DNA from: Rhizophagus irregularis
Lineage: Eukaryota
Assembly: GCF_026210795.1 (NCBI RefSeq)
Contig: NC_089429.1
Coordinates: 2,108,001 to 2,172,000 of the forward strand
Reading direction: 5' to 3'
Length of the DNA stretch: 64,000 bases
The translations under genes and the position numbers were made by a program. Positions 7,567 through 31,437 of the stretch are shown piece by piece; position 1 is the stretch's first letter, and the number at the start of each line of letters is the position of its first letter. The notes beneath the pieces are model-generated. The model saw only the letters and a list, made by a program, of their open reading frames with translations. It was not told the origin of the DNA and ran no database searches.

Positions 7567-9231
7567 TCAAAGTTCTTGTACAAATTCAAATAAATCTATT
7601 GACAAATCAAAATAATTTAAAACTTGAATACCATACAATTCAAATCCCTTCATCTCATACCACAGAGAATAAAAACGCCCAAATTTAATACTTTCTAAAA
7701 TAGCCAAATAATCAACCCTTTTCTTTTTCACAATATATTCCTTTATATAAGGAATAATATCTTCATCTGTTACTTCCTTTTTAATATTTTTGATTAACAA
7801 TTTTTTAATAAAGGTATTTTGAGAATTTTTTAAAAATGTTTCCAAATCACTTCCATTAATTGCAAGATACAATTCCAAATATTCTAATTTAAAAGGAAGA
7901 ATTTGTCCCAAATTTTGTAATATATTTGAACTTAATTCAATACAATCATCAATATTATCAATATAATCATCAATACTATCATAATAGCGAATGGTAACAT
8001 CAATTATAAGATAATTAAGATTTTGTTTAATATTTTCAATTAAGTTGAATTCTAAATAATTATTTTGAATATATCTCAAAGAAGAAGACAAAATTTTAAT
8101 TTTACTACAATATTTTATAATAAATTGTGGTAATGGTTGGGAATTATAGACAAGATTTTCTAAATAACTGCCAGACTTTTGTATTAATGGTTCTAATAAT
8201 TCATCCATTTCATTCAAAAATAAAGATTTTAATTTAAATGGTTTTGTAATATTAATAATCTGTTGAATAAATTTAGAATCTATAGATTTACAATAAAGAA
8301 TATGAATTGATTCTAAAACATTCAATTGATTAAATACTTCACTTAAAATATCCATATTTTCAAAATTAACATAACAAAATACAATTGTATTTAATGTATT
8401 TAAGCAATTAGAGTTTTTTAATGATAGTAAGGAATGGTTTAAGGAGTAGGAGAAACCTTTACAATCAAATGAAATCTTTTTAAGATTTTCTTGAGATTTA
8501 ATTATTTGTGATAAACTTTTTTCAACTATTGAATAATCCTTTTCATATTTTGGAAATAGAAAATAAAGTGATGAGATTGAATTGCAATTAGAATAGATTA
8601 ATGTTAAAAGTCTTGTTATATTATTATTCATCACATTACTGGCTAATTTAAAATTTTTGATATTAAAAATGAAATTTGGATTTTGTAAAGTTAATTCAAT
8701 AATCTTATCAACATCGCTATGTACAGAAATAACTTCAAAACTATGCAAATTGACTTCGGTTTCAATGAACAATAGGAATAATGATCTAAAAATAAGGTTT
8801 TTAAAATTTGACACTTGTGAATATGATAAATTTGCATTTTTCATAGAATAAACTGGCTTTTTGGTTGTTGAATACCTAACAGTTGCAAACCATTCTTCAA
8901 TAGAATTATAAACTTCATATGTATTTAAATGTTGAATGAATTTAGGATAATTAAATAATGTATTCGATTTTAATATGCCATTATGAATTACATATTCATT
9001 TAATTTTGTTTTATAATCATCATTTAAAAAATGTAAATAAATTTCAATAAAATGATGATTTTTAGTTGGACTTGAAAAAGGATCTTCCCATAATAATGGG
9101 ATTGCCAAACTACACCATAATCTATTAACCAATATACATGAATGTAACGTTTTATAATCATTATGAAAATATTGTATAATATCATCTATTAACTCTGGTA
9201 AATCTCCTGAAAATAACTTTGAACACGTCAT
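7567..9231 (-). CDS. F-box / LRR (RNI-like) protein, Glomeromycotina-expanded family
   Basis: 554-aa ORF; N-terminal F-box-like LPELIDDIIQYF...LHSCILVNRLWCSLAIPLLWEDPF followed by degenerate LRRs. Confidence 0.85.
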   Translation of the reverse strand: MTCSKLFSGDLPELIDDIIQYFHNDYKTLHSCILVNRLWCSLAIPLLWEDPFSSPTKNHHFIEIYLHFLNDDYKTKLNEYVIHNGILKSNTLFNYPKFIQHLNTYEVYNSIEEWFATVRYSTTKKPVYSMKNANLSYSQVSNFKNLIFRSLFLLFIETEVNLHSFEVISVHSDVDKIIELTLQNPNFIFNIKNFKLASNVMNNNITRLLTLIYSNCNSISSLYFLFPKYEKDYSIVEKSLSQIIKSQENLKKISFDCKGFSYSLNHSLLSLKNSNCLNTLNTIVFCYVNFENMDILSEVFNQLNVLESIHILYCKSIDSKFIQQIINITKPFKLKSLFLNEMDELLEPLIQKSGSYLENLVYNSQPLPQFIIKYCSKIKILSSSLRYIQNNYLEFNLIENIKQNLNYLIIDVTIRYYDSIDDYIDNIDDCIELSSNILQNLGQILPFKLEYLELYLAINGSDLETFLKNSQNTFIKKLLIKNIKKEVTDEDIIPYIKEYIVKKKRVDYLAILESIKFGRFYSLWYEMKGFELYGIQVLNYFDLSIDLFEFVQEL

Positions 9232-13608: not shown

Positions 13609-14471
13609 TAGGGATTGGAATCGATTCCCATTATTGGAATCGATTTTAAAATTGATTAATCGCGATTAATCGTTTCGCAAATATCGATTTTAAGATTCGA
13701 TTTTCGATTTTTGATAATCGAAACTAATCGAATTTATATTTCACAAAAAATACAAATTACGGTGCAAATTTATAATTATACTTAAAAGATTATTTATAAT
13801 AATAGAATTTTTTTAAAAGTAATATAATTTGAGAATGTCAAATTCACCGATCACACCCACGTTTTTGATTGGTTACGCGATTACGTCATCATCAATAAAT
13901 GTTTATTTGTTTATTATTTCTAGTACTTTCCCAACTTTAAACCCTTCGCTCAGCTGGTATGTTTTTCTTTTTTTTTCTTTTATTGTTTTTATATTTTATT
14001 TCTTGCTAACTTTATTTTATTCTCTTTAAGTTCTTACTCCTTTCAGTCTTTTGCTCTTTGCAATTAAGGTGTGTTTAGTATTACATAGTCACGATTTTTT
14101 GAAGTTTTTGTTTTTTTTTTATTTTGTCTCTTACACTTCGTTTCTTATATTTTGTTCCTTACATTTCCTTTCTAACTTTATTTTGTTTTCTTTTAGGTCC
14201 TTAGTTCTTCCCGGTGTGTTCTTTCTTTTATTTTTTTTTATTATTTTTTTTATTTTGTCTATCATATTTCGTTTATTTTATGGTTTTTATTTGGTCGGTT
14301 GGTTTCCTTCATTTTTTTATTCCCTACTATTTTTTTATCTTTTGTTTCCATTGTTACTTTTATTTCCTTAATTTTTCATTTCTTTTTCACTCCACTTCAT
14401 TTTTTTTCGTTCCTTTTCGCTTGTCCCTCGTTTCTTTCACTCCTTTTCACTCCCCGTGTTTTATATCGCGT

Positions 14472-15120
14472 TGTCACCCACGTCTGCCACCCGTGGATAA
14501 ACACATCTTTCTCATTTAACTTATTTCTCGTTACTTTGCTTGGTTTAGATTTTATTTTTCTTTTAACTTCTCGCTTTCTTTCTCATATATCCATAGTATT
14601 TATTCTCAATACTACCACTCATTCATAATATTCTCACAATATTATGTTGCCTGTAATATTTATTCTTTCAAATATTACCATCTTATTTCTTATAAACTGC
14701 GAGAGTTCTCCTAACTTCTTATATTTCATACAATAAAACGAGAATAACTCCTTTTACTTTTACTTTTCTGGACTTAATAATAATATTAATTAATTCTCAA
14801 GCGTACAATGAGCATATTCAAGATAACTTTTAATAATTAATATTTAATTTATTAAATTTGAGTCAAAACTGACTGCGGAATTCCTAACGAATCCCACCTA
14901 TATTTATACATTTTTAAGAAAACTATTTCTACCACTTCTAACTTTTCTACTAATAAAAATTTAAGAACAATAAGAAAATAAAGATATATTATCATATGAC
15001 TATCTTGTGACTAAACTAAACTAAACTATAAATATTATTTTATCGGTTAATTATTTATCCTTGTTCCATTCGGTCTTTTATTCATCCGCTCACGTGATCA
15101 TCCTGATTTCTCGGGTTACA
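14472..15120 (-). repeat. 3' LTR
   Basis: Direct repeat of 26647-27295; two G/A differences seen by eye. Confidence 0.97.
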
Positions 15121-15132
15121 GCTATCCCCCCC
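15121..15132 (-). promoter_or_regulatory. Polypurine tract
   Basis: Minus strand GGGGGGGATAGC immediately before the 3' LTR start TGTAAC. Confidence 0.8.
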
Positions 15133-15151
15133 AAGAAAAATTTGAGTCCCA

Positions 15152-16339
15152 TCAAATTCTAATTATAACTTCGAAATTTGACCTGTCAATATATTCCTTC
15201 AATAATTCTCCATTTACTGGCGTTTTCTGTATCCTTCCCTCCATAGTTTTAATTTTATAAGATCCTTTAGAAATTATTTCATGTATATAATACGGTCCTT
15301 TCCATTTTTCTTCTAGTTTTCCAGACCATTGTTTTTCTTTTGCTGCATCATAATATAGCACTTTATCCCCTATTTGAAAATTCTTTTTCATCTTGTATTT
15401 CTTATCATGATATTTCTTCTGTTTTTCTTGAGATTTCTCTATATTTTCTTTAGCTTGACTTCTAATGTTCGGTAGATCTTCCATTAAACTATTAATTCTT
15501 TGTGTTATCGTAACATTTTCATCTTCTAAATTTAATAATGTCTTCATTTCTCTTCCATATATTAGATATCCTGGTTTTAACTTGGTTGAATCATTCTTCT
15601 TTGTTCTATATGCAAATAAAACTCCCGGTATTTTTAAATCCCAATCTTTAATGTTATTCAATTTTGCTAATGATTCACATAATGTTTTGTTGAACCTTTC
15701 TATTAATCCATTCGTCTTCGGGTGATAAGGTGTCGAAAAATTGTGTTTTATCTGAAATTCCTTCATTAATAGTTCTACTAATTTATTATTAAAATGACTT
15801 CCCCTATCACTTAATATCTTCTTTGGACATCCATGTCTACATATTATATCTTCATAAATGAATCTTGCAATTTCCTTAGCATCTGCTGTTTCTAGAGCTC
15901 TAGCTTCTGGCCATTTCGTAAAATAATCCATTGCCGTAACTATGTATCTATTATTTCTTTCTGTTATTGGTAACGGTCCCACAACATCTATTCCAATCTG
16001 ATAAAATGGTTCTTTAACTTTTATTACATTTAATTCGTGTTTTCCAATCGGTTTTCCTCTCCTTTGACAACTATCGCATGATTTAACATATCTTTCCATA
16101 TCTTGTTTCATTCCTTTCCAATAATATTTCTCTCTAATCCTTTCATATGTTGCATCTATTCCAAAATGTCCAGATAGTTCATGGTCGTGTGCAATATACA
16201 TTAATCCTTCGAACTCATATTTTCTTATTACTCTCAGTTCTCTATTATCCTTTATTCTATATAACAAACCATCTTTCATCCTATAGTGTTGTTCATTATC
16301 TACATTTTTAATTATCTCATTATATTTATCTTCTTCCAT
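15152..16339 (-). CDS. Retroviral-type integrase, stand-alone ORF
   Basis: HHCC finger (AHDHELSGHFG...CDSCQ), DDE core (IDVVGP, SDRGSHF, IERFN), GPY/F motif (WKGPY); no chromodomain seen. Confidence 0.95.
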   Translation of the reverse strand: MEEDKYNEIIKNVDNEQHYRMKDGLLYRIKDNRELRVIRKYEFEGLMYIAHDHELSGHFGIDATYERIREKYYWKGMKQDMERYVKSCDSCQRRGKPIGKHELNVIKVKEPFYQIGIDVVGPLPITERNNRYIVTAMDYFTKWPEARALETADAKEIARFIYEDIICRHGCPKKILSDRGSHFNNKLVELLMKEFQIKHNFSTPYHPKTNGLIERFNKTLCESLAKLNNIKDWDLKIPGVLFAYRTKKNDSTKLKPGYLIYGREMKTLLNLEDENVTITQRINSLMEDLPNIRSQAKENIEKSQEKQKKYHDKKYKMKKNFQIGDKVLYYDAAKEKQWSGKLEEKWKGPYYIHEIISKGSYKIKTMEGRIQKTPVNGELLKEYIDRSNFEVIIRI

Positions 16340-16478
16340 TAGCTAGTATTTCTTCTATTTCTTCTTCAAAAGGTAAAATAAACCTAATACTTTTATCTTC
16401 AAATAACACGCAGTGATAATTCGTATTCCTGTGTATGATGTAAATATATATTCCTATTCCAATATTTTCAGTAGTCAT
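16326..16478 (-). CDS. 50-aa small ORF between kinase and integrase
   Basis: MTTENIGIGIYIYIIHRNTNYHCVLFEDKSIRFILPFEEEIEEILANGRR*; fills the gap exactly, starting 2 nt after the RT-kinase stop and overlapping the integrase ATG. Confidence 0.4.
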   Translation of the reverse strand: MTTENIGIGIYIYIIHRNTNYHCVLFEDKSIRFILPFEEEIEEILANGRR

Positions 16479-16480
16479 TT

Positions 16481-18802
16481 TTATTTTTCCAATAGCTTTT
16501 CAACTCGTTTATATACTTTTTTCCAACTTTTGTCATCGTTTTTAATTCTAATCCTCTTATATTTTCCTTTATTCTTATAAATATTCTGATGTTCTTTAAA
16601 CATTTTCACCATGTCCATATATTCCTCTTCGTTCAACGTTTCATATGATGTTTTATGTCCTTCATTACTTTTCTTAGTTTCTCTTCCAATATAATTATTC
16701 CAACATTCTTTATTTTCTAAGAAAATTATTACCGCATTATCTATAATGTCTTTATATTTAAATATCTCTTTCTCCATTTTATGATTCCCATATGGAGTAA
16801 TATATCCTCTGTCAAAACTTTTGGTCTTTTGATAAAAGTATTCACAATATGGTGACTTATCCAGTATTATAATGTCTTCATCTGTAAATTCAACTATTCT
16901 CCTATTGATTTCTTCTACAACTTGTTTTCTAAATAACCATTCATATTCTTTTGAAGGTTCCTCAAATCTCTTATCATCATTTCTTCTTCTTTTAAACTTA
17001 TTAAATATTATTTTTAAATCATCCTTTTCTTTTAATCGTTTAATTATATTTTCCACTATGGTGGATTTCCCTACACCATCAACCCCATCAACAATAATAA
17101 TCTGTGGTTTACTCTTCCTTCCTAATTTCTTTAATAATTCTTTTTCTGTCTTTTCTTCTAAGTTCAGTAATATTGCTTCTTTATCATTAAAATATTTCAT
17201 ATCATCCCATTTTCCCTTAAATCTTCTAGCGTCGAACCATTCATTTCCTGATCTAACATATCTCAGCTTTTTCTCTTTATTATGTTCCATTTTCATTATT
17301 TCTTGACTTAAGCCTCCAGGGTCCCTTTTTATAACTTTCTCTTCAAATTCTAGTCTTGATAACGCATCTGCATTCTTATTTTCTTTACCACTTCTATGTA
17401 TTACTTCAAAATCATATTGTTGTAACTCCATTACCCATCTTGCTCTTCTTCCTGTAGGTACTTTAGCATTCATTAATCCTTTTAACGCAGCATGATCCGT
17501 TATAACCGTAAATTTTCTTCCTGCTAAGAACTTATGGAAATACTTGATCCCCCAGAATATCGCTAAACATTCTAATTCTGTTATTGCATAATTCTTTTCT
17601 GCTCCCACTAAACTTCTACTAGCATAGGCGATAACAAATTCTTTATTTTCTTCATTTTTCTGAGATAATACTGCTCCTAACCCTTCTCCTGATGCGTCTG
17701 TAATCAATATAAACTCCTTTTCGAAATTAGGGTGATCTAATACTGGTTTCTCCATTAATCTTATTTTTAATTCTTCAAATGCTTCCTGCTGTTTCTCTGT
17801 CCATTCAAATGGTACATCCTTTTTAACTAAGTGATATAAAGGCTTTGCTATTTTCGCAAAATTCTTTATAAATCTTCTATAATATGAGCACAATCCTAAA
17901 AATGATCTCACTTGTGTAACAGTTTCTGGTATCTTTATTTCTTTAATCTTCTCCACTTTCTTTGCATCTGGTTTCAAACCATCTCTTCCAACTATATGTC
18001 CTAAAAATTCTATATTTCGTTCACCAAACTTACATTTCTTCAATTTCACAATCAAGTTGTTTTTCTTTAATTTGTTCAACACTTTATCGATATGTTCCAC
18101 ATGTTCTTCAAAATTTTTTGAATAAATCATTATATCATCTAGATATACTATTACAAATTCTCCAATATATTCTTTTAATATCTCATCCATTATCCTCTGA
18201 AATGTTCCTGGTGCATTCTTTAAACCAAATGGCATAACATTATATTCATATAATCCTTGTGAACATATAAATGCTGTCTTTTCTTTATCTTCTTCTACCA
18301 TTTCTACTTGATGATACCCTGCCGCTAGATCCAAACTCGTAAACCATCTCGCTGTTCTATATTTTTCTAATAATTCGTCTATTCTTGGTAATGGGTATGC
18401 ATCCGACTTAGTTATATTATTCAATTTCCTATAATCAATGCAAAATCTATAATTTCCTGTTTTCTTTCCTGCTAGTGTTACTGGAGACGCCCATGGACTC
18501 CATGACTTTCTAATTTTCCCCATTTTTAATAACTGTTCAACTTCTTTCTTTATAAACTTTCCCTTTTCCTCGGTCTCTTTATACCTCTTCTGTGCTATTG
18601 GTTCTTGACCTTCTTTAATTTCTATTTTATGTCTAACAGTGTCTACCTTTCCTAATTTTTCTCCATCGTATTCAAATATCTCTTCATAACTTTTGATTAG
18701 CTTTATTATACCATCCTTTCTTTTACCTGTTACTTCTCCCAAATTTATCTTTTTATCGAACTTTTCCCATTTAGTTTCATTTTTATCATTTTCATTTATC
18801 AT
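16481..18802 (-). CDS. Reverse transcriptase - RNase H - dNMP/thymidylate-kinase-like fusion
   Basis: RT (RFCIDYRKLN, MPFGLKNAP, YLDD) and RNase H (TDAS, ELECLA, TDH, NADALSR), then P-loop IIIVDGVDGVGKST and ILDKSPYCEYFYQ. Confidence 0.92.
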   Translation of the reverse strand: MINENDKNETKWEKFDKKINLGEVTGKRKDGIIKLIKSYEEIFEYDGEKLGKVDTVRHKIEIKEGQEPIAQKRYKETEEKGKFIKKEVEQLLKMGKIRKSWSPWASPVTLAGKKTGNYRFCIDYRKLNNITKSDAYPLPRIDELLEKYRTARWFTSLDLAAGYHQVEMVEEDKEKTAFICSQGLYEYNVMPFGLKNAPGTFQRIMDEILKEYIGEFVIVYLDDIMIYSKNFEEHVEHIDKVLNKLKKNNLIVKLKKCKFGERNIEFLGHIVGRDGLKPDAKKVEKIKEIKIPETVTQVRSFLGLCSYYRRFIKNFAKIAKPLYHLVKKDVPFEWTEKQQEAFEELKIRLMEKPVLDHPNFEKEFILITDASGEGLGAVLSQKNEENKEFVIAYASRSLVGAEKNYAITELECLAIFWGIKYFHKFLAGRKFTVITDHAALKGLMNAKVPTGRRARWVMELQQYDFEVIHRSGKENKNADALSRLEFEEKVIKRDPGGLSQEIMKMEHNKEKKLRYVRSGNEWFDARRFKGKWDDMKYFNDKEAILLNLEEKTEKELLKKLGRKSKPQIIIVDGVDGVGKSTIVENIIKRLKEKDDLKIIFNKFKRRRNDDKRFEEPSKEYEWLFRKQVVEEINRRIVEFTDEDIIILDKSPYCEYFYQKTKSFDRGYITPYGNHKMEKEIFKYKDIIDNAVIIFLENKECWNNYIGRETKKSNEGHKTSYETLNEEEYMDMVKMFKEHQNIYKNKGKYKRIRIKNDDKSWKKVYKRVEKLLEK

Positions 18803-18886
18803 TTTAAAATTTATTTATTATTTTATTTCTTATTATTATTTCAACAATTTTACATTTTAGGACAATTTTAACCCTTTTTATATAAT

Positions 18887-19522
18887 TTAATCCTCATTTT
18901 CACTAGATATTTCACTATCATCAGACGAGCTTTCTTCACTGGAACTTTCACTATCTTCTTGAGACTCATTTTCTTTTACTACTTCCTTTTCTTTTATTGC
19001 TTCTTTTACTGTATATAACTTCTTTCCTTCTTCTTGTTCATAATCAGATTCTCCTGATTCACTTTCATAGTCGGATTCTTCTGACTCTTCCACTTGTTTA
19101 ATATACCACACTGGTATGTCTATTATTTCTTCATCATTTTCTAATTCCAATATCTTTTCTTTATAGTTGATATTTGCATTCCATTTATCCAATAAATCAT
19201 TTCCTATAATCATTTCTTTTTGCTTTGAATCTATTACATCTAATGTTACTGGTAATACTAATTCTTTATAAACTTTTATTTCTGTATTCACTTTTCCTAA
19301 TGAAGCAATCTTTCCTCCATCTGCTAATGTACACGTAATATTACTTTTTCCTTTTATTGGTATATTTAACTCTTTTCTTAATTTCTCTGTTATTACACTT
19401 ATTGCTGCTCCTGAATCTATTACAACTTCGATTTCCTTATCATTTATTATAAACTGTGTTTTCATTGCCGTTGTAACTTCTTTTTCTCCACTTATTTCAG
19501 TCTTTTTCACCTCCGAGTGTAG
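18887..19522 (-). CDS. Retropepsin aspartic protease with acidic tail, in frame with Gag behind a single UGA
   Basis: VVIDSGAAIS active site and IIGNDLL; Gag TGA is followed by CTA CAC TCG GAG GTG AAA in the same frame. Confidence 0.9.
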   Translation of the reverse strand, partial: LHSEVKKTEISGEKEVTTAMKTQFIINDKEIEVVIDSGAAISVITEKLRKELNIPIKGKSNITCTLADGGKIASLGKVNTEIKVYKELVLPVTLDVIDSKQKEMIIGNDLLDKWNANINYKEKILELENDEEIIDIPVWYIKQVEESEESDYESESGESDYEQEEGKKLYTVKEAIKEKEVVKENESQEDSESSSEESSSDDSEISSENED

Positions 19523-22500
19523 TCACTCTGTTTTATCTCCTTTTCTTATCATTTTCTTTATCATTCTTCCTTGTTGTTCCACAATATTAAGTAGATTTCC
19601 ATAATCTACTGGATCTTTTGATTTAACTCCTATAATTTTATCTTCTCTTGGTCTACGTTTTCCCCCTGCTTCTTTCCATCTATTTATTCCTTCCATTGTG
19701 TCATAATATTCTCCTCTCTTTTTACTCCATTTATATCTTTTTGGGATATTCGTATTGTCTGGTCCTATTGGTCTATTATACATTGGTTGCTCATCCTCCA
19801 CATATTCTTCCATCGGAACTTCTCTTCTATTTCTATATTTATATTCTTCTTTCCCTCTTTCCTCAATCTCTTTGTCTAAATTTGGCTTTCCAAAATTTTT
19901 CCATCCTTGTTTAGGATTTATTCTATTACTTCTCCTTCTTTCTTGTACTGGGTTATCTTTTTCATACAAATCACGATTGTAATTATACAATTGTGGATCA
20001 TCATATTCATTATTTTCATAGTCGTAATCATCATCTGATTCTTCATTTTCGTAGTCATAATCTTCTTCATGGTCTTCTATATCCATTAAATTAACTCTTC
20101 TCTCATTTCTTCTGATATTATTTCCTAATGGACATCTAGTCGCAAAATGACCTCTTCTATTACACCTAAAACAAGTTATTTCATCATAATTAATCGGTGC
20201 TCCATTATTTCTCCTCTGATTCAATTGGTTTCTATTCCCATTATTATTCAACTCCCTTTCCATATTTCGTACTTGTTTTTCCAATTTGGCAATTCTCATT
20301 TTCTCTAATTTTTCCACTAAATCATCCTCATAATCTTCCTTTAACGGTTTGTTAAACTTATTTTCTTGTTCATTTCTTTTATCACTGTTTTGTCTAATAT
20401 CTTGAATATTATTATTCTGAATATTATTCTGATTCAACAAACTTTGATTCATCATACTTTGTATCATCATTTGATTTCCTGTCTCTATAATTTTAGCTCT
20501 TTCAACAGCTGCATCCAACGTCGCTGGTGCTGTTTCCATTACTCTTGATATCATAACTGGATTCAGTCCCTGAATAAAATAGTTAATTTTATACATTTCT
20601 CCTAAATCATTAACTCCTGGTGCTACTTTTCTTATTAACTTTCTGAATCTGCTTGCATATGCTCCTACTTTCTCATTCATTTCTTGTTTAATCGTTTGTA
20701 ACTCTCTAATCCATTGATTCTTTCTAACATCGCTTGCATAATGTTCCTTCAGTATTTTAGTAAAATCATTATTCCCATGGTTATGACCATTGTCCTCCCA
20801 TCTTTGTATATCTCCTTGTTTGCCTTCATACCAATCAGCTGCTTCTCCTCGCATGCATGCTGCTGCTTTTCTTATTTTATCTATTTGATTAGCTCCTTCT
20901 TGATAACCATTTGCGTTCCAAACAACCTCAAAATCTCTAATCCACTCATATGGATCTTGATCTCCTCCATAATATAATGGTAAATCTCCTACTTTCGCTG
21001 CTCTATTCACTGGTCCTGTCAAATTTCCAATTCTTGTTTCAACTTGATTAATTCTTCCAAATATCGTATTTGCTGGTGGAACTAAAGCATTCCAATTATT
21101 TCCTATATCATGTCCTAACATTATATTTCCAAATACTCTCAAATCTTCTCTGATGTGATTTCTTTCTGCCATATTCAATAATATATTCTCTTGAAATAAA
21201 TCCTGTAAATTATAATCAGATAGTTCACTTTCTGTATCAGAATTTTCAATATCAGAATCCCTAATATTCAACGAATTATTCGAATCTGAATTTTGACTTA
21301 AGTCAAAACCTCCTGTATTTATAACATTTTCATTATTATTTTCAACTTCATTTTCATTGAGGTCTTTAGAATTTCCTTCCCAAATCTCGTATTCTTCTGG
21401 ATCTAATATTTCTCCAATCTTTTCTGAATTATCTGTATCATCATTTTCTTCTTCAACTTCCTCTTCACTTTCTTCAATTTCAAATTTCTTTAAGTATTCA
21501 TCTAATATTCTCTTTATTTCTTTTTCCGATTCATTTTTATATTCTTGAAATTTTCTTATAAAGTCTGCACTTAATATATCAACATCTCTATATCCCATAC
21601 TCATTAATCTTAATAATTCTCCACCGGAAACTTCAATTTCTAAAACTTTGATTAGATTTTTTAACTGTTCTAACCTTTTCTCTATTTCTGTTTCATCATC
21701 CAATTCATTCTCATCTTTTACATTTTCTGGTCCTTTTTCATAACAATTTTTACATATCTTTTCTATAAATTCTTTATTGTATTCTACCGCTTCTATTGCT
21801 TCTTTCTTTAATATTATTTTATTGCACATTGGGCATTCTATCGTATACATATAATGCCATATTCTTAACTCTTCTTCTATTCTTTCGTCATCTAATTCTT
21901 CAATAGTTTTGTAAAAACTCATAAATTCTTTAGTCTTCATTATTTCATATTCCACTCTGAAATTTATTATTCGCCTTATCTCTTCAGTATCAATTTCATA
22001 ACCATTTTCTAACCAATAATTTCTATATATTCTCTCTATATGTTCATCTCCTTCATTCGAACTTGATTCTCCCAAATCATCTGAATTTTCCAGTTCTCCT
22101 ACATCACTTTGTTCTTCAACAAAACCTTTTGCTTCTACAATTTTCTTTATTATCTTATCTGTTATGTCATCATCTATCCATGGTTTCGGGTATTTATTTC
22201 CATCCCACCATTGATATGTTATACTTTTCTGAAACTTTCTGACTTTCTCTCTATTCTCTTCTTCTACTATATTTTCTTCTAAATGCAATATTTCCTTGAA
22301 ATATCTCATTGTGCTATATCCTTTGTTTTTAATGGTTATTGGTTCTGTTTTTTCTAACCATTCCTCAAATTTTGCGAATCTCATATCTAATTCATCATCT
22401 TCTATAATATATCTATATGTTAACAATTCCCTATTTCCTAATAAATTCTCTTCTGTTTGTTCCTCTAATATAAGTTCATTATCTTCATTCAGTATGTAAT

Positions 22501-22918
22501 GTTCACATATTACTTTTATTACTGATATAATTCCTATTTTTCTGTAGTCCGGTTTATTTCTATACCTTATTGATCTTACGACTACATCCAACAGTTTTTC
22601 TCCTTCTTTTCTCATTCTCTCAAATTCTTTATTTCTTTTCTTTTTACTAGATGGATAATTTTCTTCCCCATCCTTTCTTGTTAGTATTATGTATTCCATT
22701 AATTTCATATACGTATTTCTGTTATAACTCATTGCTTCTAATATTACTTTTTGAAAAATTTTCCAAAATCTTTTAAACCAATCTTCTATCTTTATTTCAT
22801 CAATACTATAACATTTCAGGCATGAAGGATCTACTTGATATTCCTTCCTCGATTCATTATGTTTTTCTATTTCGTGTCTATTTTTGATCTCTTCTAATTC
22901 ATCGTATATTTCAGACAT
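19523..22918 (-). CDS. Gag with ~580-aa N-terminal extension
   Basis: Capsid-like region (LPLYYGGDQDPYEWIRDF...MRGEAADWY...FIQGL) and CCHC knuckle CFRCNRRGHFATRC; the extension has CLKC and CPMC...CKNC motifs. Confidence 0.92.
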   Translation of the reverse strand: MSEIYDELEEIKNRHEIEKHNESRKEYQVDPSCLKCYSIDEIKIEDWFKRFWKIFQKVILEAMSYNRNTYMKLMEYIILTRKDGEENYPSSKKKRNKEFERMRKEGEKLLDVVVRSIRYRNKPDYRKIGIISVIKVICEHYILNEDNELILEEQTEENLLGNRELLTYRYIIEDDELDMRFAKFEEWLEKTEPITIKNKGYSTMRYFKEILHLEENIVEEENREKVRKFQKSITYQWWDGNKYPKPWIDDDITDKIIKKIVEAKGFVEEQSDVGELENSDDLGESSSNEGDEHIERIYRNYWLENGYEIDTEEIRRIINFRVEYEIMKTKEFMSFYKTIEELDDERIEEELRIWHYMYTIECPMCNKIILKKEAIEAVEYNKEFIEKICKNCYEKGPENVKDENELDDETEIEKRLEQLKNLIKVLEIEVSGGELLRLMSMGYRDVDILSADFIRKFQEYKNESEKEIKRILDEYLKKFEIEESEEEVEEENDDTDNSEKIGEILDPEEYEIWEGNSKDLNENEVENNNENVINTGGFDLSQNSDSNNSLNIRDSDIENSDTESELSDYNLQDLFQENILLNMAERNHIREDLRVFGNIMLGHDIGNNWNALVPPANTIFGRINQVETRIGNLTGPVNRAAKVGDLPLYYGGDQDPYEWIRDFEVVWNANGYQEGANQIDKIRKAAACMRGEAADWYEGKQGDIQRWEDNGHNHGNNDFTKILKEHYASDVRKNQWIRELQTIKQEMNEKVGAYASRFRKLIRKVAPGVNDLGEMYKINYFIQGLNPVMISRVMETAPATLDAAVERAKIIETGNQMMIQSMMNQSLLNQNNIQNNNIQDIRQNSDKRNEQENKFNKPLKEDYEDDLVEKLEKMRIAKLEKQVRNMERELNNNGNRNQLNQRRNNGAPINYDEITCFRCNRRGHFATRCPLGNNIRRNERRVNLMDIEDHEEDYDYENEESDDDYDYENNEYDDPQLYNYNRDLYEKDNPVQERRRSNRINPKQGWKNFGKPNLDKEIEERGKEEYKYRNRREVPMEEYVEDEQPMYNRPIGPDNTNIPKRYKWSKKRGEYYDTMEGINRWKEAGGKRRPREDKIIGVKSKDPVDYGNLLNIVEQQGRMIKKMIRKGDKTE

Positions 22919-23334
22919 CTTGATTTATTTTATTTACCTATTTACTTGCAAAATGATTTCATTTCATATTTCCCGTCTATTTATATTTTTATTCATATAG
23001 TATTTATTCGTTTATCATTTCAATCTTTATTTCTTTTATATTTTCATGTTTACAACTTTCTACTACATTTCTTTATTATATTTTATATCACATAGTATTC
23101 TATTACTTATAACTTGATATTCTTCCAACTTCATTAATTCCTAATTAGTTTAACGTCTTTCTGGACAACTATTTGTCTCTAAATTCTTATTATTTACATT
23201 TTTCCTGTATTTCCATCTTAACCGCTTGATTTCTTCACGCTTATTATTCTTCTTATGATATTCTTTTATTCCACCCATTATCTTCTAACGTCTTTTTGTA
23301 TATTTATTTCATCCTTTAATATTCATCTTATTCT

Positions 23335-23674
23335 TCAATTCCTATATTCTGTCTGTTCATAAATTTTCTGATTATTCCTGTATGCGGCTATTTTACATTC
23401 TCCCATTCGCAATATATTCATATTTTTGTGTTCACATCTTTCTTCATATTCATTAAGGTATCCCATTCCTTTTCGAAAGTATTCTTTACATAACGTTTCT
23501 ATTTTATTTCTTAAACTTTCTTCGCTTTCTTCCCTAACTTCAAAATAATTAATTTCTTGTAATGTTACATTCTCTATTTTTTTTTTTTTTTTTTTTGCAA
23601 TATTTACATTTTACTTCGCTGTCTATTCTAATAAAACCTTTTTCGTTTATATTTTCAAATATCATTGTTTTCAT
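23335..23674 (-). pseudogene. ~110-aa accessory ORF frameshifted in an A20 run
   Basis: MKTMIFENINEKGFIRIDSEVKCKYCK(A20)IENVTLQEINYFEVREESEESLRNKIETLCKEYFRKG...; open if the A-run changes by one base. Confidence 0.4.
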
Positions 23675-23761
23675 TTCCTGTATTTTACTCAGAATTTCTC
23701 ATTTATTATTATTTTATTTTGTCATTATCCATTTCCTTCTACTTTTATAATAATTGATTAC

Positions 23762-24022
23762 TTAGCTTCTATTGTCACTCGAATATCTATCAATTATTCT
23801 AAATTTTAAATTCAACCATTTGATCTCATTTTTATCCCAATCTGTAATACACATTCCTTCATTTTCAAACCATTATAACGCATTTCCTAACAAATGTGTC
23901 TTTGCAATCTTAAATATTCTTCTATCGTCTTTAATTCCTATCTTTGACAGATATTTTTCTACTTGATTTGTCCATTCTTTTGGATTTTCTCCTATTACAC
24001 CATAAAATATTGGTATTTCCAT
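23762..24022 (-). pseudogene. Second, miniature Gag-capsid-like ORF (86 codons) with one internal stop
   Basis: MEIPIFYGVIGENPKEWTNQVEKYL...IAKTHLLGNAL*WFENEG...WLNLKFRIIDRY parallels Gag LPLYYGGDQDPYEW...MRGEAADWYE; TAA at 23873-23875. Confidence 0.7.
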
Positions 24023-24168
24023 TTTAATCTTTTGTATTACTTCTTAAAATATATATACTTCACATTCTTTTCACGGTACAAATTTTGCCCTTTTTATAAC
24101 TTTATTTTAAACATTTCAAGGTTCTCAGACTTTAATCTCTATATTTTGACCTTTCATTCCTCTATTTC

Positions 24169-25080
24169 TTATCCTCTTATAAGATCTTCCGCTATTTCTG
24201 TTATTTCTTTCTTAGTACAACTATCTACTGATGTAATATCACAATTACTTTCGAATACTCTTTTCTTTCCTATCTTATTAACTAATAAACAAACTTTTTC
24301 TGCTTTTTCCATCATTCTTTTTAATCCTTTTCTTGTTCTTACTACATCTGTTTCCAACATTTCCTTATATATCTTTTCTCGTTCCTCTTTATCTGTTCTC
24401 CTTTTTCTATTTTTCCCTTTTCGCCTATTAATTTCTTGTTCTAATCTTTCTTCAAACCTTTTTCCTAGATAATAATGTATTTCCAATAACATCTGATTAT
24501 TCCTTCTCATTTTATGACATAATTGTAATAACGATAGTCCTCCATTCTCCTTTTCTAACATTTCTTCGTCAATATCTTCCTTCTTATGTTTTAATCTAAT
24601 CATTAAAACTTGGTAATTTTCTGATCTAACTATTTCTTCATTTTCTTCACTATCATCAGTTCCATTTTTCTCACTACTATTATCTTCTTCCTTTTCTCTA
24701 ACCTTATCATTCTTGTCATCTATTTCCATTAATTCTGATCTTTCTTCATCAGCTATTCCATCATTATTTATTTCATCTACTACTATATTATCATTATCAT
24801 TCTCATCATTACTTTTGTTATTCTCATCTTTTTCTATATTAAATTCTGACTCATCATTAACATTCCTATTTCCTGAACTATTATCACTTTCTTCTATCAT
24901 ATCTTCATCAAGTTCAATTTTTTCTTCGTTAAATATTCTTTCAGTAACTATCTCGCATGTGACAATCCAATTCTTTAGTCTCATGTCATTTTCATCATAA
25001 AATTCCACTTCAATACAATCATTTAGTTTTTCTTCAACTTTTCTCAATTCTCCTTTTGATATTTTAACTTTTAATTTCAT
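24169..25080 (-). CDS. Accessory ORF of the retroelement, unknown function
   Basis: 303 aa with an acidic low-complexity middle and a basic/helical C-terminus (RRKGKNRKRR); same strand as gag/pol. Confidence 0.75.
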   Translation of the reverse strand: MKLKVKISKGELRKVEEKLNDCIEVEFYDENDMRLKNWIVTCEIVTERIFNEEKIELDEDMIEESDNSSGNRNVNDESEFNIEKDENNKSNDENDNDNIVVDEINNDGIADEERSELMEIDDKNDKVREKEEDNSSEKNGTDDSEENEEIVRSENYQVLMIRLKHKKEDIDEEMLEKENGGLSLLQLCHKMRRNNQMLLEIHYYLGKRFEERLEQEINRRKGKNRKRRTDKEEREKIYKEMLETDVVRTRKGLKRMMEKAEKVCLLVNKIGKKRVFESNCDITSVDSCTKKEITEIAEDLIRG

Positions 25081-25834
25081 GATTTATTATTTCTTATTTA
25101 TTTATTATTTTATTAGTCAGTCGTCCCTGCCCAGGGGCAACTATATATATACTCCTAATTTGATATTTTCCTATTATTCTATTGGTTATTCATTCTTATT
25201 GTTCCATCAACCGTTCTCAGTATTTCATTAAATTCTTTATTTCTTTTATAATTCTTTATTTCTCAACTTCAATCTCCTTTTCTCTAATTATTTCTTTCGT
25301 TCTTTAATTCCTTTCTACTTTCTTTCTTAACTTTTCTCTTACTGTGCCCTATACCATTCACATGATCTGTATCACTCACGTGACTTGTATAACATTCCAA
25401 TTCTTTTACTGTGCCTTGTACTACTCACATGATCTGTATTACTCACGTGACTTGCCGCAGTATAATCTCATTTTATTCACTCACATTTGTAATCGAACTG
25501 AAGATCATAAGCCCAATTGTTCAAACACTTACCATTATACCAACAACATATAGTTGTTACATTTAAACCTTGGACTCATATTTAATTTTTATAACTCCAT
25601 TCTTACAACATCAAATATTCAACAATACTATTTCTTTTTATTTCATACTTGATACAATTCTTTTATTATACTTCTCATAATCATTAACATCATTCTTTCT
25701 TTTATTATAGCTGGATAGCCACGGATTTTTAAGCGATCAACTTACTAAAATTTCTGTTGACTAACGCCCCTGGTGACACAACTATTTTTATTCTCTTACT
25801 TGACCAGCAAGTTTCTTCAAAAATAAATTAATAT

Positions 25835-26060
25835 GAGGGTTTAACACCGCTTTACCCACAACGTACAATAATAATAATGGGGGTTTTACAGCTTTACCCG
25901 CAACTTAAAATAACAACAATGGAGGGTTTATTACAGTTTAACCCACAACTTGCAATCTAGAGGGTTTATTACAGATTTACCCACAACTTACATCTTATAA
26001 TCTCATAGTGTTTTTCAAGGTTCTCACTTAACCCTTGGGTTTATAGTTTACCCGTAACTT
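25835..26060. repeat. Five GGGTTT...TTTACCCRCAAC units in the element 5' leader
   Basis: Units begin near 25837, 25881, 25924, 25962 and 26037, with variable linkers. Confidence 0.75.
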
Positions 26061-26627
26061 TTTGCATTATTAACTTTTATTAGATTTACTTTCTTACCGT
26101 GAAATCTCAATACGGTCTTATTTTCTTTTATAGTCGATTATCGTGACTAACTTAACTCCAATAATTCTTATAGAATTATCTCCTTTTATTTCCAATAACC
26201 TATACTAGGCTTATCTCTACCTTCATATCGAAGTATGATAGTTTCTAGGTTTGTCATTAACAACTTTTCATTTCTTATTTATCAGGCTTATACATCGTCT
26301 AGTGTATTTCTTTCATTTCATGTTAGTCCTTTTTCATACTAACATACACTTCTTGTTAGTCCTTTTTCATACTAACATATACTTCTTTCAACTTCTTATA
26401 ATAAACTTCATAATTTCCTGATAAATCTCCTAATCACAAGCAATACACGCTTTGATTATCCTTCATTACTTGTACTTCTTTTATTTCTCATTGTACACTT
26501 AATAATTTTTTCTTTTTATACTCAAGTCCAGATCCTCCAGGAATACCATACAGGTACCTAACTATATGAAGATAGTCAGAATGATCATATTTCATTTCTT
26601 TTAATCTTTATTGATCATTTCCTTTCT

Positions 26628-26646
26628 CGAGAGCATTGCACCAAAT
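26628..26646 (-). promoter_or_regulatory. Primer-binding site candidate
   Basis: Minus strand ATT-TGGTGCAATGCTCTCG right after the 5' LTR; TGG complements tRNA CCA. Confidence 0.7.
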
Positions 26647-27295
26647 TGTCACCCACGTCTGCCACCCGTGGATAAACACATCTTTCTCATTTAACTTATT
26701 TCTCGTTACTTTGCTTGGTTTAGATTTTATTTTTCTTTTAACTTCTCGCTTTCTTTCTCATATATCCGTAGTATTTATTCTCAATACTACCACTCATTCA
26801 TAATATTCTCACAATATTATGTTGCCTGTAATATTTATTCTTTCAAATATTACCATCTTATTTCTTATAAACTGCGAGAGTTCTCCTAACTTCTTATATT
26901 TCATACAATAAAACGAGAATAACTCCTTTTACTTTTACTTTTCTGGACTTAATAATAATATTAATTAATTCTCAAGCGTACAATGAGCATATTCAAGATA
27001 ACTTTTAATAATTAATATTTAATTTATTAAATTTGAGTCAAAACTGACTGCGAAATTCCTAACGAATCCCACCTATATTTATACATTTTTAAGAAAACTA
27101 TTTCTACCACTTCTAACTTTTCTACTAATAAAAATTTAAGAACAATAAGAAAATAAAGATATATTATCATATGACTATCTTGTGACTAAACTAAACTAAA
27201 CTATAAATATTATTTTATCGGTTAATTATTTATCCTTGTTCCATTCGGTCTTTTATTCATCCGCTCACGTGATCATCCTGATTTCTCGGGTTACA
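26647..27295 (-). repeat. 5' LTR
   Basis: Direct repeat of 14472-15120; contains TATAAATA on the minus strand. Confidence 0.97.
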
Positions 27296-28928
27296 GCGTA
27301 TGCAAATGATTAGAAATTGACAGAGAAGTTGGCAAATTTTTTTCTGTCTTTAAGTGGGCTGAAAATATGTTATAAAGGCCTTCATTTTCTTTTGTTCCTT
27401 TCGCTTCCCTTCGTTTTTTTCATTCCTTTTCACTCCTTCATTTTTTTCGTTCCTTTTTATCCCCTTCGTTTTTTTCATCCCTTTTTCACCTCTCTTTTGC
27501 TTCTTTCATTTTTTTTACTCCACCTTTGTTTCTTTCATTACTTTTTATTCCTCTTCATTTATTTTGTTCTTCCCTTCACTTCTTTTGTTGATCTTCATTC
27601 ATTATTTTTTTCATTATATTTTGTTTCTTACTCTTCTTTTTGTTATTGCACATTCTCTTCGTTTTATTTTCATTATTTCTGTTATTTCCATAAATAAATA
27701 AATAAATAAAAATTGTTAATATTTATATTTTTAATCAATAAAACGTATCTTTAATTAATAAATTATTATTATTATCATTATAAACGTGTAAGTATTTAGT
27801 TTGCAAATAAAAATTTCATTACATTTTAAAAGTTACTTTAAAAAAAATTTTTGATATTTTGATTACAAATGATGTAATACATATTATTCTAACAAAGAGT
27901 TCGTCTGCTTCATCACGTAATGACGTAATACTTCCTTGTTTAATACTGCAAAATGCTAACTTGTGTCATTAATAAACATTTATTAACGATACTGCGCCAC
28001 AATAAATAGATTCGATTTTTATTCGATAATCGATTTAAAATCGATTCTTGTCGATTTTCGATAGATACGATTTTAATCGAATCTTTTCCAATCCCTAGCT
28101 CAATGTCCAAAGCAAAAGAAAAATTTAATTGGCAGGGAAACAGAATTATGACAATTTTTAATGATGGCAAAATAATTTTCTTTGTAAGTTCTTCATATTT
28201 TAGTTTAGTATTTTCAAAATTATGTTTGGTTTTAATGTCAAATGCAGTAAGACATTAATATTTTGCGAAGTGTTTTAAAAAATCATAATATATTATTAAC
28301 TTTATTAATTTTTAAAATAAAATTTTAATTTTTAAAAACTTTACATGTTAATTAAAAATGTTTTATTGATAGATATATTTTTACATAAATTACTGTGTTC
28401 TGAGACTTATCAAAATTACATATATTTCTTGTGATTACAAATTTAACATAACAAAATCTCAACTAGCCAAATAAATCTTTGAATTAACACAAGGATTTTG
28501 AGGTAAAGAATTTTTCCAATAAATTATATTATTTTTAGTAGATTTCTCAAATAATTTTTTTTTAATACTGTATTCAAAACTAATAAAATTTTAAACTTTA
28601 TAATATTAAATCTAATTTTTGTAATTATTTATTTATAGATATCAAGAAATTAACGCAATATTTTAATAATTTAATTATTTTCTATTATTTATTGCGTTAA
28701 TTATATCGAAAATTTTGCATAGTATGAGTAAAAATTGTAAATTCATCTATAAAGGCTACGTATAAATATTTTGTTTAATAAACGCGTATTTTTACGTATA
28801 AATTTTTCAAATATATATTTACATAATTAAATTTTATTGGCTAAAAAATTTTTGATCTTATAAATAAAAATCCGGCCATATGAAGCAATTTTCAGATATC
28901 GAGCTAAATAAGGCACATATTAATCGTG

Positions 28929-29779: not shown

Positions 29780-30460
29780 CAGTTCAGTTATTTCTAAAAA
29801 AAGAGAGAACGTTAGAGACATTCCCGAATTAAAAAAAGATGAACAAATAAAACAAAACACCAACTCGTTTTACAATTCAAAATCCTCTGGGCCAAAGTCC
29901 AAGTTGTTCCTAAAAAAAAAAAAAAGGGAATGTTAGTAACATTCCAAAACCAAAAAAAGAAATGAAACTTCACGAAAAAATCAACCCATCCATCACCTTG
30001 CAATGTCAAAGTCCATTTCGAAGTTCAAGACCGTTCCTAGAAAAAAGAAAGAGAGAGGACATTAGTAACATTCCCGAACCAAAAAAAAAGAGAAGAAATC
30101 CACGAAAAAATCAACCCACCCACTCACCTTACAATAATGTCAAAGTCCAGGTCAAAGTTCAAGGCCGTTCCTAAAAAAAGAAAGAGAGAGAGACGTTAAT
30201 AACGTTCCCAACCAAAAAAAACCCACAAAAAAAATACACCCACCCACTCACCTTGTAATGTCAAAATCCAGGTCAAAGTCCAAGACCGTTCCTAAAAAAA
30301 AGAAAGGGAGAGAAGTTGATAACGTTCCTAAACCAGAAAAAGAAATGAAAATCACGAAAAAAAAAACTCACCTTGCAATGTCAAAGTCTAGGTCCAAGGC
30401 CATTCCTAAAAAAAAGAAAGAAAGGGAACGTTAGTAATGTTCCCAAACCAGAAAAACAAA
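29780..30460. repeat. Degenerate ~120-bp tandem array
   Basis: Recurring GTTCCTAAAAAAAGAAAGAGAG...GTTAGTAACATTCC...CTCACCTTGCAATGTCAAAGTCC. Confidence 0.7.
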
Positions 30461-31437
30461 GGAACGCGTTGCCGGCGTTGGTATGGTATTGTAAAATAAA
30501 TGATTACGTAATACTATGAATTAATATTACATGATGTGGTGTTCGAGTTCGTTTTATAATTTTCGATTTGAAATCAATTTTATTAACCTTTATCGAGATA
30601 AAAAATAAAATCCTTTGATAATTATTATTAATCAATTTTACCATTGAAAAAAATTTTTTATGGATTATAACAACTCCCCTGCTCTTACAAGCGAACCGCC
30701 ATAAAATGAGAAATTCTTAGATAATTACTGATTTAATTATTAATTAATAATCAAAAAATTTTAACAAATAATTAATATAATTGTTTTTAATCATAAAAAA
30801 ATTAAACTTTTATAGTTTGCTAAAATTGACTATCATCAAAAAAATAATTTACCTTTAATACTGATTTAAAATCACCATCCAACATTTTTTGCAAAGAAAA
30901 TGTCAGGCGGGTGGTTGTAACTCGTAAGGCAAGTATTGAAATGTAGTTCTTGGCCGATATCCTTTTTAGGATGCCTGATCCCCATGGTAATTTCGGTGTG
31001 TTTTTTCTTTTTTTTTTGTATGATGTAAGATTTTTATATTATAGTTTAAGATAATTAAATAATTTAAAATAAATATTAAAAAGGAAAATCGTTTTTTTAA
31101 AAAGCATATTTTCATTTGAGATTTCCTCATATATATGTACAACAAAAAAATAAATGTTGATCATTACTCAATTAATTTATAAAAAAGATTTTTTTTAGGC
31201 GAAATATTAAGTACAGCCATGCATATTTATTCATGTGTTACAAAATAAAAAAGCTCAATTAACCTTTTATGATAAAAAAAATTTTTTTTTTTATGCAATA
31301 GGAAATATTACGTACAGCCATGCATGTTTGCACATGTGTTTCAAAATAAAAATAAAAAAAAAAGTATATAAATAAATGGACGAGGTAAAAAAATAATTTA
31401 TTGGATATAAATTTATATATTTATAAGCGATTACCAG

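Follow-up and report, generated by a model that had tools for sequence, protein, structure and literature searches.

A 12.8-kb Ty3/gypsy retrotransposon of Rhizophagus irregularis likely expresses its proteins from several shorter mRNAs, started at predicted internal promoters, in place of one long polyprotein. In the textbook view, LTR elements make reverse transcriptase (RT) and integrase within a Gag-Pol polyprotein, which settles the stoichiometry and packaging of these enzymes. Where RT and integrase have genes of their own and are served by internal promoters, the enzymes would need another packaging route, and such an element would act largely in trans and could acquire cargo genes as cassettes. 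All coordinates are positions within the window, i.e., the 64,000-nt stretch of DNA analysed (NC_089429.1, 2,108,001-2,172,000, forward strand); the LTRs, priming sites, reading frames and boxes given below with their first and last positions all lie on the minus strand.

Layout of the element

The element is bounded by paired LTRs of 649 nt that begin with TG and end with CA (5' LTR, 26647..27295; 3' LTR, 14472..15120), with 2 differences between them. A 4-bp target duplication, ACGC, is found at 14468-14471 and 27296-27299, and the empty site of the insertion is present in assembled contigs from three of four sequencing runs. The insertion is recent and the family recently mobile. By sequence, a polypurine tract lies at 15121..15134 and a candidate primer-binding-site-like stretch, beginning TGG 3 nt past the LTR, at 26631..26643; the 5' LTR carries a TATA-like TATAAATA from 27083. 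Capsid and RT are Ty3-like, the domains follow the order protease-RT-RNase H-integrase, and the best PDB sequence match to the RT is Ty3 RT (E 3e-110). Relatives of the element's proteins carry Rhizophagus annotations. Lacking is the one continuous Pol frame from protease to integrase that is typical, though not strictly defining, of Ty3/gypsy: stops separate protease from RT in the window copy, L010 and L012, and a stop precedes integrase in 12/12 loci.

Extra reading frames stand ahead of gag. The 303-aa ORF (24169..25080) has no Pfam match and 18 homologues, most of which begin at the same Met; top matches in an atlas search were unnamed Mucoromycota clusters only. A stand-alone mini-capsid ORF of 86 codons (23762..24022) is interrupted in the window copy by a stop at 23873-23875. 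It is about 86 aa long in most relatives, which give a weak Arc capsid-domain match, and it matches the element's own Gag only weakly (E 0.026). The 23674 ORF, of 41 codons, is a relic. Gag itself (19523..22918, 1131 aa) holds a Ty3 capsid and a zinc knuckle in its C-terminal half, and is preceded by 128 ATGs on an RNA started in the LTR. Its stop context, TGA CTA CAC TCG G (19513..19525), is in frame with the protease and is a candidate readthrough site found also in L010 and L012. The protease frame (18887..19522) has an acidic tail and closes with a stop, while RT, RNase H and a kinase share a 773-aa ORF that starts at its own ATG (16481..18802). Two nt past the kinase stop begins a small ORF (16326..16478, 50 aa, homologous in L001, L003, L005 and L009), which overlaps by 14 nt the start of the integrase, a separate ORF of 395 aa with its own ATG (15152..16339).

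The kinase matched profiles of thymidylate kinases (E 1.6e-7), and Foldseek searches with its model returned dAK, TMK and dCK (TMq ~0.45-0.55); identity to solved enzymes was 9-19%, and the Pfam cut-off was not reached. The single-sequence fold was poor (pLDDT 47.9), and an alignment-based model from ATG 17290 was used in its place (mean pLDDT 92.8, below 50 at residues 1-4 only). By these profile and structure matches, the kinase is a member of the thymidylate/deoxynucleoside kinase superfamily with a P-loop NMP/dNK fold. If active, such a gene, fused or free, would be a new kind of retrotransposon accessory enzyme.

A scan of viral contigs found no relatives of the element, and of the 21 loci from a prokaryote genome collection, only L030 was informative and none matched the kinase. 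We found no description of the family, its kinase or its layout in the titles, abstract openings and passages of the literature covered, with most subscription journals, Repbase and supplements outside this scope; PMC8647823 and PMC11075540 have supplementary TE libraries in which the family may be present.

TATA-like boxes in the window copy

The first-pass annotation had read a recurrent 11-mer, TATAAAAAGGG, as a set of internal promoters. We found exact matches at its three sites and at the ATG distances it gave, all on the minus strand and within the element. One lies in the RNase H/kinase linker (17323..17333), a predicted internal promoter 37 and 43 nt ahead of two in-frame ATGs. Another (18872-18882, 80 nt from the RT ATG) is held within TATATAAAAAGGG (18872..18884), in the 84-nt gap between protease and RT and 80-82 nt ahead of the RT ATG. 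The third (24088..24098) is 76 nt ahead of the mini-capsid ATG, with a second TATATAT 33-35 nt ahead of the same codon. The other TATA-like boxes were also present where they had been placed: TATAAATAG (22977..22985) 67 nt ahead of the Gag ATG, TATATATATA (25142..25151) 69-71 nt ahead of the 303-aa ORF, TATAAAAG at 23749 for the 23674 ORF, TATATAAA (16508..16515) within codons of the kinase C-terminal helix, where it may reflect protein constraint, and 37 nt ahead of the small ORF, and TATATAT at 16450. Box-to-ATG spacing is 67-82 nt at four ORFs of the window copy besides the kinase. A leader sequence common to the RT and 303-aa ORFs was likewise recovered as a 19-mer, AATAAAATAATAAATAAAT, starting at 18827 and 25114 (18809..18827 and 25096-25114); simulations produced a repeated 19-mer in 3 and 11 cases out of 200. 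Assembled-contig pieces X19 and X20 span the boxes at 25151 and 16515, and such contigs show neither starts, ends nor strand.

When the element was simulated with Markov models of orders 1-4, three exact copies of TATAAAAAGGG arose in 0/300 runs per order, a figure that concerns an 11-mer picked post hoc. At least one TATA-starting 11-mer reached three copies in 11-22% of the simulations, and 40 different 11-mers, TATAAAAGAAA among them, have at least 3 copies in the element; because such repeats are common, the three copies are not significant by recurrence alone. The position of the boxes, unlike their recurrence, is significant. The TATA-box consensus is TATAWAWR, and TATAWAW lies 28-90 nt upstream of four of the five main ORFs that have independent starts (present for the 303-aa ORF, mini-capsid, Gag and RT, absent for integrase); the corresponding figures are 17% for windows of non-coding DNA from the element itself (P ~0.004) and 86/1195 for other ATGs. 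Among 10 host ORFs in the window, no TATAWAW lay 28-90 nt upstream of the first ATG, which may not be the true start.

Boxes and gene junctions in relatives

At the RNase H end, a box with 0-2 mismatches from the 11-mer was found in 7/7 long-linker or split relatives (TATAWAW in 6/7), compared with 0/2 short-linker fused relatives, 1/19 kinase-less gypsy loci and 2.7% of 10135 background windows, the linker groups having been assigned after the sequences were seen. Independent lineages number about 5-6, because L014 and L016 are near-duplicates. The linker copy shows two properties of a Pol II TATA box. The TATAWAWR consensus is kept irrespective of reading frame: the box occupies codon phases 2, 0 and 1 across relatives and lies outside any ORF in L011, and the variants TATAAAAA, TATATAAA and TATAAATA all fit, while the L006 linker carries AATAAAAAGGG. 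Spacing to the downstream start codon is fixed, with an in-frame ATG 37-48 nt away in 9/9 kinase loci, window copy counted, and 46 nt away in L030, unlike the placement of the box relative to the upstream stop, which is variable (before, after or no stop). This spacing leaves a leader of just 0-18 nt and, given very short leaders, agrees with the fungal TATA-to-start distances of 35-46 nt in an excerpt of PMC9604717. Residue types unable to end in T preceded the linker I-K/N in 0/15 rows, which are related, versus 46% of linkers; column conservation (0.92 vs 0.67 and 0.59) is inflated by best-match alignment.

A separate kinase ORF stands downstream of the box in L011, L014 and L016, as it does in L007, where the ORF upstream is unrelated. 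With a kinase that ends at 146 aa and a fused sister, L006, the L011 locus may be a decayed copy. In a kinase-less relative, the box precedes the small ORF/integrase pair. The conservation of the linker box, its low background, and the split-kinase and kinase-less loci therefore favour a real internal TATA promoter, and of all the predicted promoters the RNase H-end box appears the best supported. The free-standing kinase ORFs also argue well for the earlier suggestion that the kinase is produced in two forms, free and as an RT fusion, the free form being predicted at 16481..17296 from ATG 17296 or 17290, with a folded N-terminal extension.

Positional conservation in relatives held for the linker copy, and far less clearly for the RT box: TATAWAW occurred at 28-90 nt in 0/3 relatives covering the region, L010 having AATAAAAAG ~54 nt upstream of RT, L012 no box, and L030 TATATAAA just 21 nt ahead of the first RT ATG. 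This box, weak in the three relatives, is not clearly kept. Ahead of the L012 Gag, several boxes lie 57-129 nt upstream. As a route from protease to RT in the window copy, frameshifting or readthrough was ruled out by stops in all three frames; the gap holds more in-frame stops and no YAG between -70 and +30.

Further downstream, 11/13 junctions from the kinase to the next ORF fall within -11 to +3 nt, with overlaps of ATGA in L003, L006 and L009 and of TAATG in L012 and L014, and 6/7 junctions from the small ORF to integrase fall within -28 to +8 nt; in L014 and L016, RNase H is joined to the kinase via ATGA. Both kinase junctions with wide gaps (33 and 38 nt) have TATAWAW 28-38 nt before the ATG. 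The adjoining of integrase to upstream stop codons suggests reinitiation. The strict gene-by-gene expression of the first-pass annotation is not supported, in view of these stop-start junctions, TATAWAW at 28-90 nt in only 1/12 integrase starts, and a protease in frame after Gag via a conserved TGA-CTA-CAC.

The tight junctions would also fit polycistronic translation of one or two long RNAs through termination-reinitiation and readthrough, the A-rich motif being an RNA reinitiation signal, and an excerpt of PMC2699510 has a fungal hypovirus and the SART1 retrotransposon using such junction types. Yet the box is kept without a stop before the internal ATG in the window copy, L001, L003, L006 and L010, the wide-gap kinase junctions both carry TATAWAW, and the scheme accounts neither for gaps as wide as 84, 146 and 51 nt nor for Gag past its upstream ATGs; we consider it unlikely. 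Expression of the downstream ORFs from spliced LTR transcripts, for which the plant Ogre intron between Gag-protease and RT (excerpt of PMC6317226) and foamy virus Pol (excerpt of PMC7828637) are precedents, seems to us quite improbable. In L012, a 47-nt GT...AG interval fuses protease to RT in frame and has the most pyrimidine-rich acceptor found (0.53); gene model P0041 shares this junction, and P0014, P0018, P0024 and P0030 also link protease to RT, but the gene-model junctions disagree among themselves and are possibly prediction artefacts. The sole in-frame RT acceptor of the window copy lies 76 nt inside the ORF and is purine-rich (0.24), its donors are all weak, and splicing predicts no TATA-shaped motif at fixed spacing. 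On inspection, an in-frame protease-RT intron is plausible in L012 and poor in the window copy and L010; subfamilies may differ, with splicing real just in the short-linker one.

That the motif is a TATATA/AATAAA-like 3'-end processing signal, terminating Gag-protease or RT-RNase H transcripts, is very unlikely. We take it to resemble fungal efficiency and positioning elements, it stands right behind the stop codon at the protease end in the window copy and L010, and also in L011 and L007, and AATAAA variants occur in L006 and L010. Its spacing nevertheless follows the downstream ATG; it precedes the stop in L014, L016 and L030, and it lies within an open frame in five loci, where cleavage would yield a non-stop mRNA. 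Promoters would still be required for the downstream ORFs. Least credible is the view that the motif arose incidentally from A-rich composition together with protein constraint on the linker residues I-K-R. The post hoc recurrence is unremarkable, five loci share a codon phase, and the kinase-end TATA overlaps a conserved W-x-x-V-Y/F helix and is missing in several relatives, but the linker motif persists across three codon phases and also outside any ORF, with fixed ATG spacing and against its low background.

Expression model and known systems

We think it fairly probable that Pol II TATA boxes act as internal core promoters from which a few nested mRNAs are made; protease would likely be reached by readthrough of the Gag stop and integrase by stop-start reinitiation. 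Transcription would start ~30-40 nt downstream of each box. The resulting mRNAs, each running to the 3' LTR and ending there, would serve the 303-aa ORF, the mini-capsid, Gag(-protease), RT-RNase H-kinase and kinase-small ORF-integrase. Of the nested subgenomic mRNAs proposed earlier, a few with translational coupling are thus favoured, and one promoter per gene is not. The RNase H-end box would drive the kinase-small ORF-integrase unit, and may predate capture of the kinase, because it is already found ahead of the small ORF/integrase pair in the relative that has no kinase. In the window copy, the kinase would exist both RT-fused and free, plausibly boosting dNTP supply for reverse transcription, while the LTR-started RNA would act mainly as packaged genome. 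More tentatively, it is possible that the lineage abandoned the Pol polyprotein altogether: LTR RNA would be an untranslated genome, Gag, RT and the kinase/integrase unit would have their own TATA-driven mRNAs, RT and integrase would be packaged unfused to Gag, and genes captured by the element (nucleotide kinase, small ORFs, F-box and coiled-coil ORFs) would be expressed from a slot at the RNase H-end promoter. The layout suggests that many database gene models splicing such ORFs together may be wrong.

The element resembles Ty3/gypsy (Metaviridae; yeast Ty3) in its TG...CA LTRs, target duplication, polypurine tract and Gag-protease-RT-RNase H-integrase order. Ty3 Pol is made by a +1 frameshift as one polyprotein (excerpt of PMC5911963), whereas in the element RT and integrase each have an ORF and an ATG of their own, extra ORFs lie ahead of gag, and a kinase lies behind RNase H. 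Like the UAAUG and AUGA termination-reinitiation junctions of the CHV1 hypovirus and SART1 (PMC2699510, in whose excerpted text LTR elements are not shown to use the mechanism), the kinase-to-integrase junctions of relatives have UAAUG and AUGA, and are candidate reinitiation sites. In foamy viruses (Spumaretrovirinae), Pol is separate from Gag and an internal promoter is present (excerpt of PMC7828637), but their Pol, in which protease and integrase are included, is translated from a spliced LTR transcript; in the element, Gag keeps the protease, integrase has its own ORF, the core enzyme genes have boxes ahead of them, and there is no env. Ogre (Tat clade) has extra ORFs, a stop-containing gap between Gag-protease and RT that is an intron averaging 274 bp, and RT-RNase H-integrase in one ORF (excerpt of PMC6317226). 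The element shares the extra ORFs and stop-containing gap, although its 84-nt gap holds a TATA box and no good acceptor. Lastly, an internal promoter in yeast Ty1 gives a Gag-derived capsid fragment that restricts transposition (excerpt of PMC5911963), and this restriction factor may have an analogue in the stand-alone capsid-like ORF of 86 aa. Ty1 makes a single internal transcript from within gag, whereas the element has a separate capsid-fragment gene and several boxes before essential genes.

The element and its split reading frames

The boxes lie within an LTR retrotransposon on the minus strand (14472-27295), which has LTRs of 649 nt each that differ at 2 positions and an ACGC duplication on both flanks. 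Because a joint skipping the whole element (the empty site) was present in three of the four sequencing runs examined, we regard the insertion as polymorphic and recent. The gene order is 303-aa ORF, mini-capsid, a 41-codon relic, Gag (1131 aa), protease, RT-RNase H-kinase (773 aa), a 50-aa small ORF and integrase (395 aa). By structure the element is a Ty3/gypsy member; Ty3 RT is the nearest to its RT among solved structures, and the predicted kinase model (pLDDT 92.8) has a thymidylate/deoxynucleoside kinase fold. Those of its protein relatives that have a named source belong to Rhizophagus irregularis, R. clarus and R. diaphanus, which makes an arbuscular mycorrhizal fungus the very likely host. 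Two database proteins, P0068 and P0070, are distant kinase relatives fused behind a NUDIX hydrolase and possibly represent the donor family of the captured kinase.

The 303-aa ORF and the mini-capsid have 18 and 22 homologues, mostly intact stand-alone ORFs (~86 aa for the mini-capsid) sharing the first Met, so both are genuine family genes. The mini-capsid (23762-24022, 86 aa, capsid-domain) is conserved among family members and disrupted here; by analogy with Ty1 it is a candidate copy-number-control or capsid-modifying factor. The relic coding region (23335-23674) lies in short ORFs and contains a 20-nt A run, and gene model P0117 fuses it to the mini-capsid. The 5' leader (25830-26060), where contig depth is high, carries about six imperfect GGGT(A/T)AA...AAACCC palindromic repeats, possibly a packaging, dimerisation or enhancer array; similar repeats occur in the leader of the metagenome locus L012. 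Elsewhere in the window are two related ~550-aa ORFs (7567-9231 and 59527-61173; 78-87% identity in parts), one weakly F-box-like, and tandem or dispersed repeat arrays typical of transposon ends (1542-2633, 2790-3993, 4072-4642, 29791-30478 and 44255-45112; units of 54/76, 19, 13 and 16 nt).

On an RNA from the LTR TATA-like box, 50 ATGs precede the 303-aa ORF, 128 Gag, 264 RT and 334 integrase. The protease frame closes with a stop, and the 84-nt gap before RT holds stops in all three frames. With so many upstream ATGs, and stops between protease and RT, the element would need a non-standard expression strategy. Decay of this particular copy does not account for the split: L010 and L012 also keep protease and RT apart, all 12 loci examined, counting the window, encode integrase in an ORF of its own, and many database RT proteins start at the equivalent Met. 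Gag and protease are in frame across TGA CTA CAC TCG G in all three family loci covering the junction (window, L010, L012); this stop context is one that favours readthrough. A separate integrase ORF also occurs in other gypsy families, which lack the kinase (L020:1063-1132, L021:2769, L018:815-954, L041:4484-4604), and split pol may be widespread in such elements; in L020 an TATATATA run lies 65-69 nt upstream of this ORF. Ty3/gypsy-like RT matches within bacterial and archaeal genome records (L028-L047) most likely stem from misbinned eukaryotic contigs.

Placement and conservation of the boxes

The first-pass annotation had noted a TATA-type 11-mer at the RNase H/kinase linker (17323-17333), before RT (18872-18882) and before the mini-capsid (24088-24098), and its coordinates and box-to-ATG distances were all correct on re-measurement. 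Four Markov orders were simulated 300 times each, and none of the runs produced three copies of the exact 11-mer. The recurrence is not the evidence, because some TATA-starting 11-mer occurs three times in 11-22% of simulations. Better evidence is box placement: TATAWAW lies 28-90 nt upstream of four of the five independently started main ORFs, compared with 17% of non-coding windows (P ~0.004). Taken as a whole, the internal box feature is real.

Scanning metagenomes yielded 27 loci; the kinase is present in 16, and nine of these cover the RNase H end, where we scored the best 11-mer match within 45 nt. The expected positional conservation was borne out: all seven relatives with a long linker or split kinase have 0-2 mismatches (TATAWAW in six), whereas the best match in both short-linker fused relatives has 4. 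These counts represent ~5-6 independent lineages, the grouping was made once the sequences had been inspected, and L011 may be a decayed copy; RNase H identity among box-bearing loci in the tree is 58-91%. The background rate of a box with at most 2 mismatches is 2.7%, and among kinase-less gypsy loci it was found in 1 of 19 (L027 was too short, and loci without the anchor motif were unscored). Codon phase is 2 in the window, L001, L003, L006 and L010 and 1 in L014 and L016, and the box is outside any ORF in L011; by sequence comparison, it is conserved as DNA. In L011, L014 and L016, RNase H closes with a stop and the kinase begins at its own ATG; in L007 an unrelated ORF precedes the kinase, and TATAAAT is still 48 nt upstream. 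In each of the nine kinase loci the box lies 37-48 nt ahead of the ATG, whereas its placement with respect to the upstream stop varies. The only positive kinase-less locus, L030, has TATATAAAGGG 46 nt upstream of a small ORF overlapping integrase and groups in the same RNase H clade (support 94/97, not starred), which suggests that the box may have belonged to the integrase unit before kinase capture.

Probable internal promoters and their alternatives

Judged from these patterns, the boxes would most likely be TATA core promoters producing nested mRNAs that end in the 3' LTR. The RNase H-end box has the strongest support; for the boxes ahead of Gag, RT and the upstream ORFs it is moderate. 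The predicted mRNAs would serve the 303-aa ORF, the mini-capsid, Gag, RT-RNase H-kinase, and kinase plus small ORF plus integrase; protease would be made by readthrough from Gag. The fungal TATA-to-start distance is reported as 35-46 nt (PMC9604717), and leaders at the kinase would therefore be very short. With no primer-binding site, internal mRNAs would presumably not be copied on their own.

The proposal of one promoter per gene, best supported at the RNase H-end box, fails for integrase, with TATAWAW at 28-90 nt in 1 of 12 starts. In five loci TATATAT lies 109-124 nt before integrase, within the small ORF (four) or the kinase (L004). TATATAAA in the kinase's final helix is 37-53 nt upstream of the following start codon in six loci (the window, L003, L004, L005, L009 and L013) and altered in L002, L006, L007, L012, L014 and L015; the site overlaps conserved residues. 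That composition or protein constraint explains the boxes is the least probable alternative of all. Of 13 junctions between the kinase and the next ORF, 11 fall within -11 to +3 nt, with ATGA and TAATG overlaps among them, and six of the seven between small ORF and integrase fall within -28 to +8 nt. Junctions of these types are used in termination-reinitiation (PMC2699510); pure reinitiation is an unlikely account of the whole element, and under the promoter reading small ORF and integrase would be translated after the kinase by stop-start coupling. Relatives carry differing cargo ORFs between kinase and integrase, a position that looks exchangeable: F-box-like, joined by TAATG (L014:945-1127; Pfam E 1e-4), coiled-coil-like of ~80 aa (L013:1046-1291, L002:895-1140) and an unrelated 33-aa ORF (L008:746-847).

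The scheme also falters at the RT box, which is an AATAAAAAG variant in L010, just 21 nt upstream in L030 and absent in L012. In L012 a 47-nt GT...AG interval would link protease to RT, the same junction as in gene model P0041; no comparable acceptor was found in the window's protease-RT region, and splicing is a rather improbable explanation. Less probable again is that the boxes act as poly(A) signals. L012, a short-linker relative, also has TATAAAA 43 nt upstream of a protease-frame ATG (356-399), and three GCTATATAAA repeats with a further TATATAAA upstream of a Gag-like ORF (5738-5966).

Relation to known systems

No published description of this layout was found in the literature searched (including PMC8647823, PMC11075540, PMC6431247 and PMC10309623), whose coverage is limited. 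In the text available, two Rhizophagus transposon papers describe Gypsy elements as expressed and recently expanded and contain nothing on this layout, and a giant-transposon review gives captured dUTPase and other ORFs without the word 'kinase'. Ogre has a similar protease-RT gap, but there it is an intron (PMC6317226). The element is partly like Ty1, in which an internal transcript yields a capsid fragment (PMC5911963), and like foamy viruses, which have Pol separate from Gag and an internal promoter (PMC7828637). As far as these sources extend, none of the three carries a nucleotide kinase or has RT and integrase as genes that start separately behind TATA boxes. If internal promoters are used, RT and integrase would have to be packaged by some means other than fusion to Gag, as is foamy virus Pol (PMC7828637).
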